From an uncultured bacterium (GTDB taxonomy: Bacteria; Bacteroidota; Bacteroidia; Bacteroidales; 4484-276): a stretch of DNA of 42,599 nucleotides. Positions 1,724 through 25,756 of this stretch are shown in pieces. The stretch lies in NCBI GenBank assembly GCA_965369845.1, contig CBDUSJ010000001.1, forward strand, positions 1-42,599, written 5' to 3'. Below the pieces are notes generated by a model that searched no databases, was not told where the DNA came from, and saw nothing but the letters and a program-made list of their open reading frames with translations. Both the position numbers and the translations under genes were made by a program. Positions within the stretch are counted from its first letter, which is position 1. Every line of letters begins with the position of its first letter.

Positions 1724-2743
1724 TTGGTAAAAAATAATTCAAATAAAATATTGCCGGAATGGTTTGTAGTGGTCAATCCCAACGCAGGTAGCCGGAAGAT
1801 CAAAAAAGACTGGCCTGTAATAAAACAGCTTTTAAACGAAAAAAAACTGAGCTATTTTTTTCGTTTTACCGAAGGTCCTCTTCACGCTATCGAAATTACC
1901 TCTGACGCAATTAAAAAAGGATACAGGAAATTTATTGCAGTTGGCGGAGACGGAACCATGAATGAAGTCGTCAATGCAATTTTTACACAAAATGAGATAC
2001 CTCCTCTTGATTTTCAAATCGGTATAATTCCTGTTGGAACCGGAAACGACTGGGGAAGAATGTTTAAAATTCCGGGAAAATATGAAGATGCTATAAACAT
2101 TTTAAAGCAAAATGATCTTTTTATCCAGGATATTGGCAAGATAAATTATTACGACGGTGATAATCCAAAACAGAGATTTTTTGTGAATGTTGCAGGTACG
2201 GGGTTCGATGCGCTTGTAGCAAAAAAAACAAACATTCAGAAACAAGAGGGTAAAAGTTCTTTTCTATCATATTTTTATAATTTATTGATAAGCCTGTTTC
2301 AATACAAACCGAAAATAGCTGAAGTTGATGTAGATGGAAACAAAAATAAATATAACATATTCAGCATGAGTATTGGGATATGCCGCTACAACGGAGGTGG
2401 CATGATGCAACTTCCGAATGCTCTGCCCGATGATGGTTTGCTTGATGCAACAATTATAAAAAAAATTGGTCTTGGCACGATTTTTTGGCAATTGAAAAAT
2501 CTTTATACCGGAACTTTTATTAAGCATCCTAAAGTAGTTACTTTAAGAGGAAAGGAGATAAAAATAAAATCACGGAAAATAAAATTTTTTCTTGAGGCAG
2601 ATGGAGAAACTCTCGGTCATTCGCCTTTCGAAATCACCATTTTGCCGGGGGCTTTGCAAGTAATTATCGGCGACAGAGACGCACGGCCGTGCGTCTATAC
2701 AACAATTACAACACGCAATTCCAACGGTAAAATAAATATATGA
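1724..2743 (+). CDS. diacylglycerol kinase-family lipid kinase (YegS/BmrU-like); the last ~25 codons are read through a REP-like palindrome
   Basis: Motifs VVVNPNAGS, AVGGDGTMNEV and PVGTGNDW are typical of the DAGK catalytic domain. The only available start is TTG at 1724. The stop overlaps the next ORF (ATGA at 2740-2743). Confidence 0.85.
   Translation: MVKNNSNKILPEWFVVVNPNAGSRKIKKDWPVIKQLLNEKKLSYFFRFTEGPLHAIEITSDAIKKGYRKFIAVGGDGTMNEVVNAIFTQNEIPPLDFQIGIIPVGTGNDWGRMFKIPGKYEDAINILKQNDLFIQDIGKINYYDGDNPKQRFFVNVAGTGFDALVAKKTNIQKQEGKSSFLSYFYNLLISLFQYKPKIAEVDVDGNKNKYNIFSMSIGICRYNGGGMMQLPNALPDDGLLDATIIKKIGLGTIFWQLKNLYTGTFIKHPKVVTLRGKEIKIKSRKIKFFLEADGETLGHSPFEITILPGALQVIIGDRDARPCVYTTITTRNSNGKINI
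2677..2696. repeat. REP-like perfect 20-bp palindrome AGACGCACGGCCGTGCGTCT (copy 1), inside the 3' end of the lipid kinase ORF
   Basis: Read directly from the sequence as a perfect inverted repeat centred on GG|CC. The same 20-mer recurs at 3248-3267. It is followed by the shared tail ..ACAACA. Confidence 0.9.
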
Positions 2744-3435
2744 ATGTTAAAATGATGGAAAAATTTCAAAATAAATATCGCATACAGTCAAACAGAATGC
2801 CGGGATGGGATTATTCCGGAGAAGGTGCATATTTCATCACAATTTGCGTTAATAATCGGGATTGTATTTTTGGCCATGTTGAACAGGGCAAAATGATATT
2901 GAACAATTTTGGAAAAATTGCCCACCATGAATGGGAAATTTCTGCCCAGATACGCAATGAAATTGAATTGGACGCATTTGTTATAATGCCCAACCATATT
3001 CACGGAATTGTAATTATCAACAAATCAAATGTGGATAATAATATATACAATACAAATGACGGTACGCATGGTTCACACGTAGAGACACACGGCCGTGTGT
3101 TTCTACAACCACCACAACAACCACCACAACAACCACCACAACCCAACCAACCTAAATTGTATCGCAAACCAAAATCAATTTCATCATTTATTGCCGGTTA
3201 CAAATCATCGGTTACAACCAAAATAAATGATTTGATTGACCGTGTACAGACGCACGGCCGTGCGTCTCAACAAACGCACGGCCGTGCGTCTCAACAGAAA
3301 TATAATAGAAAAAACAGATTGTGGCAGGTAAATTACCACGACCATATCATACGAAGTGACGCAGAATACAACCGTATCAAAACATATATAATTGAAAATC
3401 CTGAAAAATGGGAAGAAGATAAATTTTATAAATAG
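2740..3435 (+). CDS. REP-associated tyrosine transposase (RAYT; IS200/IS605 TnpA-like HUH/Y1 enzyme)
   Basis: N-terminus KFQNKYRIQSNRMPGWDYSGEGAYFITICV, HUH motif MPNHIHGIV, and C-terminal RLWQVNYHDHIIRSDAEYNRIKTYIIENPEKW carrying the catalytic-Tyr region. Palindromic repeats lie in and next to the gene. The true start may be ATG 2752 or 2755 (MEKFQNKYRI). Confidence 0.85.
   Translation: MNVKMMEKFQNKYRIQSNRMPGWDYSGEGAYFITICVNNRDCIFGHVEQGKMILNNFGKIAHHEWEISAQIRNEIELDAFVIMPNHIHGIVIINKSNVDNNIYNTNDGTHGSHVETHGRVFLQPPQQPPQQPPQPNQPKLYRKPKSISSFIAGYKSSVTTKINDLIDRVQTHGRASQQTHGRASQQKYNRKNRLWQVNYHDHIIRSDAEYNRIKTYIIENPEKWEEDKFYK
3079..3106. repeat. Diverged REP-like palindrome GTAGAGACACACGGCCGTGTGTTTCTAC (copy 2), in frame inside the RAYT ORF (encodes VETHGRVFL)
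   Basis: 28-nt palindrome with one G:T. Relative to the canonical 20-mer it carries a paired G>A / C>T change that preserves pairing. It is preceded by GTAG. Confidence 0.85.
3106..3152 (+). repeat. 12-bp microsatellite (CAACCACCACAA x3 plus a degenerate tail) encoding QPPQQPPQQPPQPNQ inside the RAYT ORF
   Basis: Units at 3106-3117, 3118-3129 and 3130-3141 are identical. The tail is CCCAACCAACC. Confidence 0.9.
3248..3297. repeat. Two tandem REP-like palindromes (copies 3 and 4) forming a 24-bp tandem duplication, in frame inside the RAYT ORF (THGRASQQ x2)
   Basis: AGACGCACGGCCGTGCGTCT sits at 3248-3267. ACGCACGGCCGTGCGT recurs at 3274-3289. The 24-bp units at 3250-3273 and 3274-3297 differ at one base. 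Confidence 0.9.
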
Positions 3436-3444
3436 TAAATACAA

Positions 3445-3690
3445 ATGAATAAAGTCGGACAAATAGAAAGCATTACCCAAAACCGTGTGGTAATACTATT
3501 CCAGGACGAATTGGGCTACAAATATCTCGGTAATTGGGAAATAAAAAGATAATAGCAATATTGAAGAATAATTGCTACAGATTTATCTTTATCGGGGAGC
3601 TTATAAATCAGCTTAATTAATCGAGCTATAGACCAATTAAAAACTACAGCAAAAAATTTGAATGATAAATTATTAAATATAAACATTTAA
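3445..3690 (+). pseudogene. hsdR: Relic of the N-terminus of a type I restriction enzyme R subunit (hsdR), with stops, frameshifts and a 3' truncation
   Basis: 3445-3552 reads MNKVGQIESITQNRVVILFQDELGYKYLGNWEIKR*, matching the conserved HsdR N-terminal signature (..TQNRVV.LF...LGY.YLGNW..). Shifted frames continue with DNSNIEE, then SLINRAIDQLKTTAKNLNDKLLNIN, in the order expected for HsdR. Nothing beyond about residue 80 is present. Confidence 0.6.
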
Positions 3691-3701
3691 AAATAAATAT
3701 T

Positions 3702-4721
3702 ATGGATACTAAATTAACGATGACGAACACAAAAAGTCAGCTTCTTAACGCTTATAATGAGTTGTTAAATAAGCTAAAATTTCAAAAAACACCCGACCCG
3801 AAAAAAGAAAAAGAGATTAAAGAAAAAGAAAACATTGTAAAAAGCGCTGTTTCTACTTCGATAGATGAAATTGTGAATAACATTGCCGGCCTTAAACTTC
3901 TGATCAACAAATCGCTCGATCAGAATGAGAAAACATTGGTCGAGCAATTTAAAAAACTTCTCAATATTCAGGAAGCAATAAAATCGGAACAGGAAAAATT
4001 AGAAGAATTGTACGACATTATTGCAAATGCCGATACTTTGGCTGCTCTTCTTCTTGCACAAAAAGAGAAAAAACAGCAGTTCGAAACCGAGATGGCGGAA
4101 GTAAAAGCAAAGTTTGATAATGAGATGAAGGAAACAAAAGAAAAATGGGAAAAAGAGAAAAATGAGTTTATTGCCCTGAATAAGGAAAAGGAAACTTTAG
4201 TAAAAAAAGAACGAACACGTGAGGAAGAAGAATACACGTACAATTTAAAACTTAACAGGAAAAAAGACCAGGATCAATATAAGCTTCAGAAAGAAACACT
4301 TGAAAAAGAACTTAAAGAAAAAAAAGCTGCTTTTGAAAAGGAAATAACGGAACGCGAAAAAGTGGTTAAAGAGCGTGAAATATATTTGGATGAATTAACT
4401 AAATAGGTTGAATCATATCCCACAGAACTTGAAAAAGCAATTAAGGAAACTGAAAAAAATGTTGCAGAAAAATTGCAGACACAGTTTGGTTTTGAAAAGG
4501 AAATGATGGCAAAAGATCTTGACGGAGAACGCAAACTCAAAGACCAGATCATTAAAAGCCTTCAGGAGAAAATTAAAGAACAGAACACATTAATCGCACA
4601 GTTGACTTCCAAGACCGACAATGCAGGGGAACAAGTAAAACAAATTGCGCTAAAAGCAATCGAGAGTTCTTCAAAAAGTCATTATATCCAAATTGAAAAA
4701 GAAAAAAGAGACGAGGGTTGA
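3702..4721 (+). pseudogene. Lys/Glu-rich coiled-coil protein of unknown function, one reading frame interrupted by a single in-frame TAG (4404-4406)
   Basis: ORFs 3702-4406 and 4473-4721 are in the same frame (offset 771 nt, a multiple of 3). The codons between them (VESYPTELEKAIKETEKNVAEKLQ) continue the same heptad-like composition. Confidence 0.55.
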
Positions 4722-23602: not shown

Positions 23603-23677
23603 GGCCCCATAGTTCAAGGGATAGAATGGAAGTTTCCTAAACTTTAGATCCAGGTTCGAGTCCTGGTGGGGCTACCA
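23603..23677 (+). tRNA. tRNA-Arg (anticodon CCT), CCA encoded
   Basis: Manual cloverleaf: acceptor GGCCCCA/TGGGGCT, D arm GTTC-AAGGGATA-GAAT, anticodon arm GAAGT-TTCCTAA-ACTTT, T arm CCAGG-TTCGAGT-CCTGG, discriminator A plus CCA. Confidence 0.9.
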
Positions 23678-23850
23678 AATACACGGTTTAAAATCCTTAT
23701 ATTTTCACATTTTTTCTTTTCGTTCCAATTTCTTTCATTAGTTTGGGTGAGAACGATTAGTAAAACACTATAAAAAAGTTGTAGGTAAGCTGTGAGAACA
23801 TACTGTTTCAAATTCATATAATTTTCGTAATTTTAGGAAAAATTAAAATA

Positions 23851-24171
23851 ATGATTAATAAAACCAAAATATTAATAGACCTAAAAAGTCATTTAATTAA
23901 GAACTACGGCAATTCTGTAAAAGATGTTATTTTGTTTGGTTCTCAAGCACGTGGCGACTCTAAGAAATATTCCGATTATGATGTTTTAATTGTATTAGAA
24001 AAAGATTATTCGGGCAAAGATGAAAATCAAATTTTGGATTTGTGTTATGATATTGATTTGAAATATGACATTCTTTTAGATGTTCATTTATTATCAAGTA
24101 ACGAGATGAAATCTATTCGAGGGAAACAACCTGTTTTTGTAAATGCTATTAAATCTGGGATATACGCATGA
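23851..24171 (+). CDS. Nucleotidyltransferase-domain protein (MNT-type antitoxin of an MNT-HEPN module)
   Basis: LFGSQARGDSKKYSDYDVLIV matches the GS-x-ARG...D-x-D minimal nucleotidyltransferase motif. 4-nt ATGA overlap with the downstream HEPN gene. Confidence 0.85.
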   Translation: MINKTKILIDLKSHLIKNYGNSVKDVILFGSQARGDSKKYSDYDVLIVLEKDYSGKDENQILDLCYDIDLKYDILLDVHLLSSNEMKSIRGKQPVFVNAIKSGIYA

Positions 24172-24569
24172 CAATAGAAAGAAACGACAGAAAAAGTTTA
24201 ATTAATTATCGGTTGGAGAAGGCAGAAGAAATGATTTTAGATGTTCAATTATTAATTGAGAATGATAGATTACGTTCGGCGGTTAATCGGATTTATTATG
24301 GGATGTTTTATTCTCTATTGGCATTAGGATTAGCAAATCAATTTGAGACATCGAAACATGTCCAACTGATTGGTTGGTTCAATAAGAATTTCATCCGTGA
24401 GGGTTTAATAGATTCAAAATATGGTAAAATAATCAACAAAGCATTTAACCGGAGAACTACAGGAGATTATGACACCTATATTGAATTCGAGAAGGACATT
24501 GTATTTGAGATGTTCAATGAAATGCAAGATTTTATATCGGAAATCAAATCATACCTAAAAATTGATTGA
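24168..24569 (+). CDS. HEPN-domain protein (putative toxin partner of the MNT-HEPN module)
   Basis: 133-aa all-helical protein with the RIYYGMFYSLLAL and NRRTTGDYD segments typical of HEPN (PF05168-like) partners of MNT genes. Translationally coupled to the MNT gene. Confidence 0.8.
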   Translation: MTIERNDRKSLINYRLEKAEEMILDVQLLIENDRLRSAVNRIYYGMFYSLLALGLANQFETSKHVQLIGWFNKNFIREGLIDSKYGKIINKAFNRRTTGDYDTYIEFEKDIVFEMFNEMQDFISEIKSYLKID

Positions 24570-24774
24570 AAATAGCCAGCCTACAACAGCACCTATAACA
24601 AATAGCCGCTGTTCTTACTTCGTAGAAAAATTAATTAGTAAATTGAAAAATATAAGTAATTAAGAAAATTAATACGTAAAAAAGCGGCACGCAACATAGC
24701 TGCGAACAGTTATTGTACTTATCGAAAAAAACAAAACCGAATTCAACAAACTAACGCAAGGAATCGAAAAAATC

Positions 24775-24805
24775 TTGACATGTGTTATCTTTTATGATAA
24801 CTTTG
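24775..24805 (+). promoter_or_regulatory. Putative promoter with an embedded operator palindrome upstream of the RelE/Gp49-like-XRE pair
   Basis: TTGACA at 24775-24780. Inverted repeat GTTATC-N6-GATAAC at 24784-24801. TAACTTTG (TAnnTTTG) at 24798-24805, only 4 nt before ATG 24810, so the mRNA may be leaderless. Confidence 0.45.
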
Positions 24806-24809
24806 CAAA

Positions 24810-25145
24810 ATGGTAAGAAAGATTGAATTTTATAAAGACTACTTCACTGAATTTTATTCAAAACAAAATGAACGAGTTCAAGAAAAGATTGAATATGTTT
24901 TCAAATTGATAAGACATGTTGAAAGAATACCTAAGAAATTTTTTCAACATTTAACTTCAACTGACGGTCTTTATGAAATACGAATTGAGTACCAATCTAA
25001 TATTTATAGAATTTTCTGTTTCTTTGATAAAGGAAGATTAGTTGTTTTATTGAATTGATTTGAAAAAAAGACAAGAAAAATCCCCAGGAAAGAAATAGAA
25101 TTGGCAGAAAAACTAAAACAAGAATATTTTAACGAAAAAAAGTAG
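24810..25145 (+). pseudogene. RelE/ParE-superfamily toxin (phage Gp49-like / HigB-like) inactivated by an in-frame TGA at 25056-25058
   Basis: The N-terminal 82 aa end ...YEIRIEYQSNIYRIFCFFDKGRLVVLLN*. The same frame continues FEKKTRKIPRKEIELAEKLKQEYFNEKK*. Family members read ..LLNGFQKKTQKTP.. at this point, so the stop replaces a Gly codon (GGA to TGA). Confidence 0.75.
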
Positions 25146-25149
25146 CGCA

Positions 25150-25449
25150 ATGAAAAATTTTAAAGGGATTAAAGATTTCGATGAACTCTTAAATAAAAAA
25201 TACGGAAAAGTTGGAACTGAAAAACGAAATGATTTTGAGGAACGTGCTCACATGTTCATAATTAGTGAAATGTTAAAAGAAGCAAGAAAAGAGGCAAAAA
25301 TAACACAAGAGCAACTTGCTATAAAAGCAGGAACAAAGAAAAGTTACATATCAAAACTTGAAAATGCAAAAGGGAATATTCAACTTTCAACCTTGATTAG
25401 AATATTTGAAACAGGACTTGGAAAAAGGATTGGACTAACATTTATGTAA
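25150..25449 (+). CDS. XRE-family helix-turn-helix antitoxin/transcriptional regulator (HigA-like)
   Basis: HTH_3 segment ITQEQLAIKAGTKKSYISKLENAKGNIQLSTLIRI. Sits 4 nt downstream of the toxin reading frame. Confidence 0.85.
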   Translation: MKNFKGIKDFDELLNKKYGKVGTEKRNDFEERAHMFIISEMLKEARKEAKITQEQLAIKAGTKKSYISKLENAKGNIQLSTLIRIFETGLGKRIGLTFM

Positions 25450-25644
25450 TAAATACGCATCATAACAAAGACTCATAGCATCAAACATTGAACGAAACCG
25501 TTCCATATCGGATGCAGCAATTTTTTATTATATTTTTAGGATTAATTATTAACTTAAAATATAACAAAAATGAAAAAAAAGATGATTCGTTAAAAGAACG
25601 TATGCTCCTTATAATTAGACCGGCAAGAATTTATTGAAAAATAT

Positions 25645-25680
25645 AAAAAATGGAGCAAATTAAACTTGCTCCATTTTTTA
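25645..25680. terminator. Bidirectional intrinsic terminator immediately downstream of tRNA-Pro
   Basis: 8-bp stem TGGAGCAA/TTGCTCCA with a 7-nt loop, flanked by A6 (25645-25650) and T6 (25674-25679). Confidence 0.7.
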
Positions 25681-25682
25681 TG

Positions 25683-25756
25683 TCGGAGTGGCGAGACTCG
25701 AACTCGCGACCTCTAGTCCCCCAGACTAGCACGCTAACCAACTGCGCCACACCCCG
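25683..25756 (-). tRNA. tRNA-Pro (anticodon GGG), CCA not encoded
   Basis: Manual cloverleaf on the minus strand: acceptor CGGGGTG/CACTCCG, D arm GCGC-AGTTGGTTA-GCGT, anticodon arm CTAGT-CTGGGGG-ACTAG, T arm GCGAG-TTCGAGT-CTCGC, discriminator A. Confidence 0.9.

Follow-up and report, generated by a model that had tools for sequence, protein, structure and literature searches.

Introduction

The closest described counterparts of the locus reported here are the tyrosine transposases associated with repetitive extragenic palindromes (REPs), termed RAYTs or TnpA_REP, and among them subclass 2.4, which Quentin, Siguier, Chandler and Fichant (2018, BMC Genomics 19:475; PMC6006769) defined by the motifs NH[IFV]H, WQ and YIxNNP. 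This subclass was found in Cyanobacteria, Bacteroidetes and various phyla and is identical with group 4 of Bertels et al. (2017). 'Double-foot' REPs (5′ GT[AG]G, 3′ C[TC]AC) were described in frame inside its tnpA_REP genes and were read as insertions in a peripheral loop, which a model located at a distance from the DNA-binding surface. Table S1 of the same study contains the exact 28-mer GTAGAGACGCACGGCCGTGCGTCTCTAC, assigned to a Chloroflexus aggregans gene. Here, a stretch of 42,599 nucleotides (nt) from an uncultured bacterium of the Bacteroidales was analysed (GenBank assembly GCA_965369845.1, contig CBDUSJ010000001.1, positions 1 to 42,599 of the forward strand; referred to as the window). 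It contains a RAYT gene that carries three REP copies in its own reading frame and is preceded by a fourth. The locus is a further example of the known arrangement and, with both the hairpin sequence and the in-gene REPs published in 2018, its value as a discovery is small. What is added are numbers which show that the in-gene REP is near-universal and constrained at the nucleotide level. No later literature on the function of intragenic REP copies was found.

Compared with the published subclass, nothing essential differs: motifs, β3-αC insertion, REP feet, taxonomic range and the exact 28-mer are the same. Beyond that description, the locus has a tandem pair of REPs with mutated feet at a second site, a flanking copy upstream only and a compensated variant at the site that is conserved in the family (resident site). 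A first-pass annotation of the window, made from the sequence alone, had assumed that REPs only flank RAYT genes, a view that the 2018 study had already rendered outdated.

In E. coli, TnpA_REP (YafM; structure 4ER8) has a Y1 HUH fold with its HUH motif as well as a catalytic Tyr on helix αD, β4 residues that read the 5′ GTAG and REPs adjacent to its gene, and all of these features have counterparts in the window. What GTAG, H59/H61 and Y115 do in the E. coli enzyme was described by Messing et al. (2012; PMC3479197). The E. coli REPs, however, are imperfect hairpins in which a bulge is essential and GTAG is unpaired, and are present in hundreds of strictly extragenic copies that flank the gene as bacterial interspersed mosaic elements (BIMEs). 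The REP of the window, in contrast, is a perfect palindrome with paired GTAG/CTAC feet, low in copy number and situated inside the open reading frame (ORF), and the RAYT of the window has ~85 extra residues between the HUH motif and β4. The REP doublets forming hairpins (REPINs) and their RAYTs from Pseudomonas and enterobacteria (Bertels & Rainey 2011; groups 2 and 3) likewise combine a single-copy domesticated Y1 transposase with GTAG-tagged palindromes. Formally, the 28-mer can be divided into two 14-nt halves in inverted orientation and resembles a REP doublet that has collapsed; REPINs differ as REP pairs with a spacer that are extragenic and number tens to hundreds per genome.

Short palindromic repeats that are tolerated in frame in protein loops are also known from the Rickettsia palindromic elements and from the GTAG/CGTC REPs of Di Nocera et al. 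(2013; PMC3733652), who described intragenic GTAG REPs in other genes. In the latter, as here, GTAG can supply a TAG stop codon, so that only certain frames survive. Both kinds of repeats reside in many host genes at non-conserved positions, whereas the window REP is hosted by the gene of its own enzyme, at a position conserved throughout the clade. Structurally, the RAYT of the window is best matched by the TnpA proteins of the IS200/IS605 family (IS608, ISDra2), with which it shares the chemistry of hairpin recognition in single-stranded DNA (ssDNA). In these elements, however, the hairpins of the left and right ends are distinct and located outside the gene, multiple identical copies exist, and TnpA has ~130–155 amino acids without loop insertions.

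Results

A palindrome maintained at one site of the gene

In 107 of 110 close homologues of the RAYT, the motif VETHGRASLQ or HVETHGRASLQ is present at the same site, just after the HUH strand. Its observed codons, GTA GAG ACG CAC GGC CGT GCG TCT CTA C, form the perfect 28-nt palindrome GTAGAGACGCACGGCCGTGCGTCTCTAC. Within 15 subfamily coding sequences, which were found by protein-level searches without the palindrome and share a mean amino-acid identity of ~52%, the nine motif codons are essentially fixed, although they are otherwise rare in these AT-rich genes. At third positions, the entropy is 0.27 bits in the motif, compared to 1.00 bits for 59 conserved residues elsewhere (Mann-Whitney p = 3e-4). 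In 104 of the 107 homologues, residue 10 is one of Q, P, H, R and L, which is consistent with only the first-base C, completing the CTAC foot, being fixed. E2 and S8 were replaced jointly by D2 and Y8 in five out of five cases, equivalent to an exchange of G:C for T:A at one stem pair, and A>V at motif residue 7 is accompanied by the silent change ACG>ACA. N-terminal read-throughs of homologues hold RDARPCVST or VETHGRASLP, both of which stem from upstream copies of this DNA read in other frames. The copy at 3079–3106 of the window, at first regarded as a merely diverged one, is thus the occupant of the ancestral, family-wide site, and the copies at 3248 and 3272 are lineage-specific extras.

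To obtain a wider set of genes without regard to the palindrome, metagenome contigs were scanned with an alignment restricted to the 86 N-terminal residues and with the search patterns MPNHxH and SxRxPxWDY. A palindrome with arms of at least 9 base pairs (bp) was detected in the linker behind the HUH motif in 60 of 69 complete genes, compared to 6 in N-terminal and 5 in C-terminal control regions of the same genes. Approximately 47 of the linker palindromes are 28-29-mers of the form GTAG(A/G)G(A/G)C-N6|N6-G(T/C)C(T/C)CTAC, of which the inner six pairs are lineage-specific and fully compensated. One frame is translated as VETHGRASLQ, VGAHGRAPLQ, VGATGRSPLH or VETRHALSLP and another as RRDTLQRVST, RRDVACNVST or RGTARRAPT, while the third would read TAG. 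As the palindrome is kept in two frames with compensated inner bases, the constraint acts on the nucleic acid rather than on the peptide. In a descriptive table of 26 distinct 28-mers, 97.8% of the cells pair, double-sided changes occur at 6 of 12 pairs and 56 cells are double-sided versus 14.5 ± 3 in shuffles; the weight of the covariation rests on the contrast between site and controls (60 versus 6 and 5 of 69).

Furthermore, 17 of 46 genes have another copy of their own lineage-specific palindrome close by, either immediately before the start codon or no more than ~40 nt behind the stop codon, which marks the intragenic hairpin as the cognate REP of each gene. With a site occupancy of ~90–97%, fixed codons and two frames, it is nearly universal and preserved at the level of nucleotides rather than inserted occasionally; in this respect, the family-wide figures go beyond the 'insertions' of PMC6006769. 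The first-pass annotation had suspected selection on the hairpin rather than on the encoded peptide, and the fixed rare codons, the stems compensated in two frames and the joint change of E..S to D..Y speak strongly for this. When the orthologues were inspected for THGRAS in non-palindromic codons, the palindromic codons turned out to be fixed.

The RAYT and its assignment to subclass 2.4

ORF 2740–3435 encodes an intact-looking Y1/HUH TnpA_REP of subclass 2.4. That it is a RAYT transposase, as annotated before, was corroborated by a match to NCBIfam NF047646 (REP_Tyr_transpos; E = 5e-18, 65.3 bits), by the family profile, which matches E. coli TnpA_REP 4ER8 at the HUH strand and in the WQ...YIxNP region, and by the Y1 HUH fold of the predicted structure. 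The NCBIfam match is split in two stretches because of loop insertions. More than 7,900 database homologues exist, many of them named RayT by their sources, and a precomputed PF01797 match is present in a few. An AlphaFold model based on the 110-sequence alignment reached a predicted local distance difference test score (pLDDT) of 76.5 and a predicted template modelling score of 0.70, while a 40-sequence alignment gave an unusable model with a pLDDT of 44. The top 30 PDB matches of the model were all IS608, ISDra2, IS200 or TnpA_REP, 4ER8 included, with E-values from 7e-6 to 1e-3.

The HUH motif N85-H86-I87-H88 (nt 2992–3003) agrees with NH[IFV]H of the subclass, and both His residues are invariant in the 110-sequence alignment. 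The W motif, WQ, is part of a β4 segment that aligns to W94, Q95, W99, E100, H101 and R104 of the E. coli enzyme, the GTAG-binding residues being those listed in Fig. S11 of PMC6006769. YHDHIIR, initially considered as the catalytic-Tyr region, aligns to this GTAG-binding segment, and the catalytic Tyr is Y216 in YIIENP instead. The latter motif fits YIxNNP at five of six positions (family consensus YIINNP). Even with the Tyr moved to Y216, the intragenic REP copies remain between the HUH motif and the catalytic Tyr.

The variable β3-αC insertion of the subclass was found as well: residues ~94–146 are unalignable beyond the REP-encoded decapeptide. The cognate double-foot REP lies beside and inside the gene, in frame, with the feet GTAG...CTAC at 3079–3106. 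The resident palindrome corresponds to residues 114–123 and falls in the only long low-confidence segment of the model (residues 103–135, pLDDT <50), located between the HUH strand and helix 147–172. The tandem pair corresponds to residues 170–185 in the coil after this helix, where residues 171–190 have a pLDDT of 61–73. Judging from the low pLDDT, both insertion sites are loops, in line with the loop position that had been considered for the copy-bearing segment.

REP copies in the window

The 20-mer AGACGCACGGCCGTGCGTCT occurs exactly at 2677–2696 and 3248–3267, with one mismatch at 3272–3291 and with three mismatches at 3083–3102; direct reading of the region and a mismatch scan agreed with the coordinates annotated earlier. 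No match is expected in the window by chance (0 in 100 dinucleotide-preserving shuffles), and beyond the four copies in 2673–3295 the 42.6 kb contain no further 20-mer at up to three mismatches. The rest of the window (~40 kb) has a G+C content of ~35%. The coordinates of all features are compiled in Table 1.

Table 1. Coordinates of the RAYT gene, its motifs and the repeats in and beside it.
Feature	Coordinates	Strand	Remarks
RAYT/TnpA_REP gene, subclass 2.4	2740–3435	+	231 amino acids; all family-invariant residues present
Extragenic REP copy	2673–2700	.	exact 20-nt core; degenerate feet ACAG...ATAC, not GTAG...CTAC
HUH motif H86-I87-H88 in PNHIH	2995–3003	+	aligned to H59-M60-H61 of 4ER8
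Family-conserved intragenic 'double-foot' REP	3079–3106	+	GTAG...CTAC, 28 nt; codes for VETHGRVFLQ; β3-αC loop
12-nt tandem repeat ACAACCACCACA, 3.2 units	3105–3142	+	PPQQ repeats, within the variable linker
Two tandem REP copies	3244–3295	+	cores 3248–3267 and 3272–3291; THGRASQQ twice; loop after helix αC
β4 segment W195-Q196...H200-D201-H202...R205 (LWQVNYHDHIIR)	3322–3354	+	homologous to the GTAG-binding residues of E. coli
Y motif YIIENP	3385–3402	+	Y216 aligned with the catalytic Tyr Y115 of E. coli TnpA_REP

The copy at 3083 is the core of the 28-nt palindrome GTAGAGACACACGGCCGTGTGTTTCTAC, which has 13 Watson-Crick pairs and one G:T pair. Relative to the consensus, it carries the compensated G>A/C>T pair that was noticed before (ACG>ACA, GCG>GTG); a third change, the C>T of TCT>TTT, results in the G:T pair. 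The preceding GTAG was also seen correctly and has its counterpart in the CTAC foot. The four cores are followed by ATACA, CTACA, CAACA and CAACA, so that a degenerate CTAC foot and a subsequent A are common to them, while the ACAAC tail formerly attributed to all copies follows only those at 2677 and 3083. Translation verified that three of the four copies are within the RAYT ORF and in frame. The copies at 3248 and 3272 constitute a 24-nt tandem repeat of 2.1 units, and their feet are mutated to GTAC...CAAC and CAAC...CAAC, respectively. The 12-nt tandem repeat overlaps the last two bases of the right foot of the resident REP (3105–3106), and homologues also have tandem repeats flanking the REP.

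RNA hairpins were predicted with −13.3 kcal/mol for the upstream copy and −18.1 kcal/mol (z = −5.95) for the resident copy. The tandem pair can be folded as one long hairpin of 18–20 bp with a predicted −40.4 kcal/mol. In an Rfam scan, the tandem hairpin had only sub-threshold, chance matches resembling microRNAs, and at gathering score nothing was detected in the window but two tRNAs located elsewhere. A promoter and terminator scan of 2400–3750 yielded nothing interpretable, Bacteroidota promoters being outside the models of the tool.

The upstream copy lies at a gene boundary, 43 nt before the RAYT start codon, and its core begins exactly at the end of the YegS/DAGK lipid-kinase domain encoded by ORF 1724–2743 (amino acids 314–317). 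The lipid-kinase ORF runs ~22 codons beyond the conserved domain and through the REP, which is read as RDARPCVYTT; the usual TAG stop is absent because the 5′ foot is ACAG and not GTAG. The TGA stop codon of this ORF overlaps the ATG of the RAYT gene (ATGA at 2740–2743). Neither a hairpin downstream of the RAYT stop codon nor a second copy of the gene was found in the window.

REP copies in close relatives

The three nearest homologues (62–80% identity) are located in unrelated gene neighbourhoods without synteny to the window. At the resident site, locus L205 (protein P0003, 76% identity) carries the compensated ACACAC/GTGTGT variant of the window as well, and an exact consensus copy follows 51 nt behind its stop codon. 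The variant is present in the window and in L205 although both loci hold consensus copies outside the gene. Locus L201 (P0001) combines a consensus resident copy with a compensated second-site copy, ATACGCACGGCCGTGCGTAT, L204 has the resident copy only, and second-site copies decay in close relatives, e.g. those encoding P0002 and P0004. The second site is thus common to the sub-clade, with decay at different rates. The resident copy, in contrast, stays paired even where it is unlike the neighbouring consensus copies.

Long in-frame tandem arrays were observed beside the resident REP in L205 (10001–10948; P0003), L122 and L123, with PHVETHG repeated ~17 times (left-arm repeats), HVRDGS 12 times and SQPNQQQ five times downstream. 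The linker before the REP is between 3 and 83 residues long. A third in-frame REP site was noticed in P0085, P0095, P0049 and P0106 (~residue 46) in a β-hairpin before the HUH strand (VVDTHGRAYLQYSDFGK, VVNTQGRAYLSL). REP copies are thus tolerated in at least three loops of the protein family.

Dispersal of the REP family

When one genome per species was scanned for the exact 20-mer, it was found in at least 120 stretches from Bacteroidota, Spirochaetota, Chloroflexota, Planctomycetota, Desulfobacterota, Gammaproteobacteria and others. Among the matches listed, there were 145 copies, 118 of them in loci without a RAYT and 24 inside or at most 300 nt from one; ~85% were flanked by GTAG and CTAC, conservation ended abruptly outside the 28 nt and 37% were inside ORFs of at least 120 amino acids versus 86% for random positions. 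The palindrome is a REP family that is dispersed, mostly extragenic and away from RAYTs. That the palindrome might be absent elsewhere, which the first-pass annotation had raised as an objection to a REP family, is contradicted for the sequence family, whereas the window itself shows only four local copies.

Around 13 subfamily loci, 19 copies were in the gene or at most 150 nt from it and 4 in 148 kb of farther flank. The resulting density of ~1 per 37 kb away from the gene agrees with the ~14 flanking 16-mers per replicon reported on average for group 4 RAYTs. The elements depart from classical REPs and BIMEs in their perfect palindrome, the paired GTAG, the four distal copies per 148 kb and the intragenic location of three of the four copies in the window.

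Among 66 perfect extragenic or dispersed 28-mers, seven were nested in longer host palindromes versus 0.35 expected, with 4–15 extra complementary bp on each side (e.g. L097:4824, L047:12, L017:220, L106:4197 and L038:4291). Some of them resemble bidirectional terminators (A-run, stem, T-run). This nesting suggests insertion of the 28-mer into hairpin loops or palindromic targets. A BIME-like cluster of seven exact 20-mers in 1.2 kb, without a RAYT, was seen in L113 (6619–7796) as part of a larger composite repeat with spacings of 109–309 nt. Half-sites and tandem arrays of half-arms (GAGACGCACGGCC..., ...GTGCGTCT) flank many full copies (e.g. L059:1150, L061:118, L118:6073–6276, L032:7088 and L044:6603) and may have been left behind by aborted or incomplete events at the hairpin.

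Discussion

Putative activity of the enzyme on its REP

The ORF most probably encodes an ssDNA Y1/HUH endonuclease of the REP-associated family, with the 28-mer GTAGAGACGCACGGCCGTGCGTCTCTAC as its cognate double-foot REP. On either strand, this sequence offers a 12-bp stem, a GGCC loop and a 5′ GTAG foot. By analogy with the E. coli enzyme, the RAYT would bind the hairpin and GTAG through W195, Q196, D201, H202 and R205 of β4 and would subsequently nick and rejoin ssDNA beside the hairpin with H86/H88 and Y216. The anatomy of the loci suggests that extra copies result from hairpin-driven slippage combined with an enzyme that acts by preference close to the gene encoding it; the tandem repeats in the flanks and the partial duplications of arms may have the same origin. 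Only copies in stop-free frames and in permissive loops would survive, because the frame reading TAG is excluded.

Several points weigh against this reading. The NCBIfam score of 65.3 bits is below the curated equivalog cut-off of 80 bits, and the protein matched no Pfam family at E ≤ 0.01, PF01797 (Y1_Tnp) included. Hairpin binding and cleavage are transferred from E. coli TnpA_REP, which depends on a stem with a bulge and on a GTAG that is unpaired (PMC3479197), whereas here the stem is perfect and GTAG is paired with CTAC. The three extra copies in the window with their mutated feet may not be substrates. A REP population in the window's own genome is hypothetical, with no dispersed copies beyond the gene neighbourhood in 42.6 kb. 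Concerning the constraint on the resident copy, the covariation table was drawn from sequences picked as palindromes, and the data fit selection and self-templated correction of the palindrome alike.

Persistence of the resident copy

Why the resident copy persists can be explained in several ways. It is conceivable that it serves as a physically linked seed copy, so that enzyme and substrate are inherited and transferred together. In a stricter form, which is put forward here with reserve, the in-frame β3-αC REP would be an obligatory, nucleotide-selected cis element of subclass 2.4 RAYTs, an inseparable master or seed copy that might also set the expression of its own enzyme. This proposal derives from the occupancy of ~90–97%, the two frames, the fixed rare codons and the inherited compensated variants. 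The view of Quentin et al. (2018), according to which the copies are neutral insertions tolerated in flexible loops, kept palindromic by arm-to-arm correction or re-insertion, is likewise a tentative option. It fits the low model confidence at both sites, the placement of the insert away from the DNA-binding surface in PMC6006769, the decay of second-site copies in P0002 and P0004, and the tandem repeats and partial arm duplications beside the hairpins, which indicate slippage. It is less easily reconciled with one site being occupied in 107 of 110 and 60 of 69 genes at ~50% identity with perfect or near-perfect stems. The compensated variant in the window and L205, retained despite adjacent consensus copies, also argues against simple homogenisation. 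Autoregulation in cis, i.e. in-frame hairpins that stall translation or transcription or bind the enzyme on its own mRNA or ssDNA and thereby throttle the gene and keep the transposase low, is rather unlikely. The sense-strand hairpins predicted for the conserved site and the tandem pair (−18.1 and −40.4 kcal/mol) are strong, the hairpin is conserved whatever the reading frame, and the sole non-Watson-Crick pair of the resident window copy is G:U in the sense but A.C in the antisense strand. Across the family, however, mismatches have no sense-strand bias (13 G.T versus 13 A.C, and ~6 versus 4 in clean 28-mers with a single mismatch), a strand comparison judged uninformative about a role of the RNA. 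Moreover, HUH enzymes are ssDNA-specific as far as known, and the same hairpin is dispersed outside genes, where regulation of the RAYT gene is impossible.

Two further explanations have far less in their favour. An ordinary protein motif, in which VETHGRASLQ or THGRAS is kept for metal or DNA contact and the palindromy is incidental, would account for the nearly invariant peptide of the close subfamily but is hardly credible. Codons atypical of these AT-rich genes are fixed at the synonymous sites, residue 10 is free among amino acids with C-initial codons and the segment is predicted to be disordered. Distant relatives keep the palindrome with unrelated peptides such as VGATGRSPLH or, in the other frame, RRDTLQRVST and RRDVACNVST, and the same DNA is found outside genes and out of frame (RDARPCVST read-throughs). 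This explanation is effectively refuted by the codon evidence. The locus is also very improbable as an autonomous insertion sequence of the IS200/IS605 type with the palindromes as left and right subterminal hairpins, despite the Y1 HUH fold of the protein, the hairpin just upstream of the gene and the unrelated neighbourhoods of the closest homologues. Only the 5′ two-thirds of the gene would be enclosed by the hairpins, the 28-mer occurs dispersed by itself with sharp 28-nt boundaries, and the genes are typically single per locus, with no second copy in the window. Such an element was rejected for lack of a right-end hairpin downstream of the stop codon in the window.

If the in-frame REP is an obligatory cis element, one stretch of DNA would encode both a protein loop and that protein's substrate, and enzyme and substrate would travel together in vertical and horizontal transfer. 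The system is a compact test case for a domesticated transposase that stays associated with non-autonomous repeats and for a coding sequence that accommodates strong DNA or RNA structure. For annotation, the 28-mer is of practical use as a flag, as VETHGRASLQ or RDARPCVST in a 'hypothetical protein' indicates that a REP has been read through.

Further observations in the window

Downstream of the RAYT gene, the consecutive ORFs 3702–4406 and 4473–4721 lie on the same strand and encode Lys/Glu-rich, coiled-coil-like products without a Pfam match; a frameshift or stop codon may have divided a single gene here. Elsewhere, two tRNA genes on opposite strands (23603–23674, +; 25683–25756, −) bracket a stretch of ~2 kb with a G+C content of 0.29–0.32. 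This stretch (23603–25756) comprises four small ORFs of 82–133 amino acids and could be a small island.

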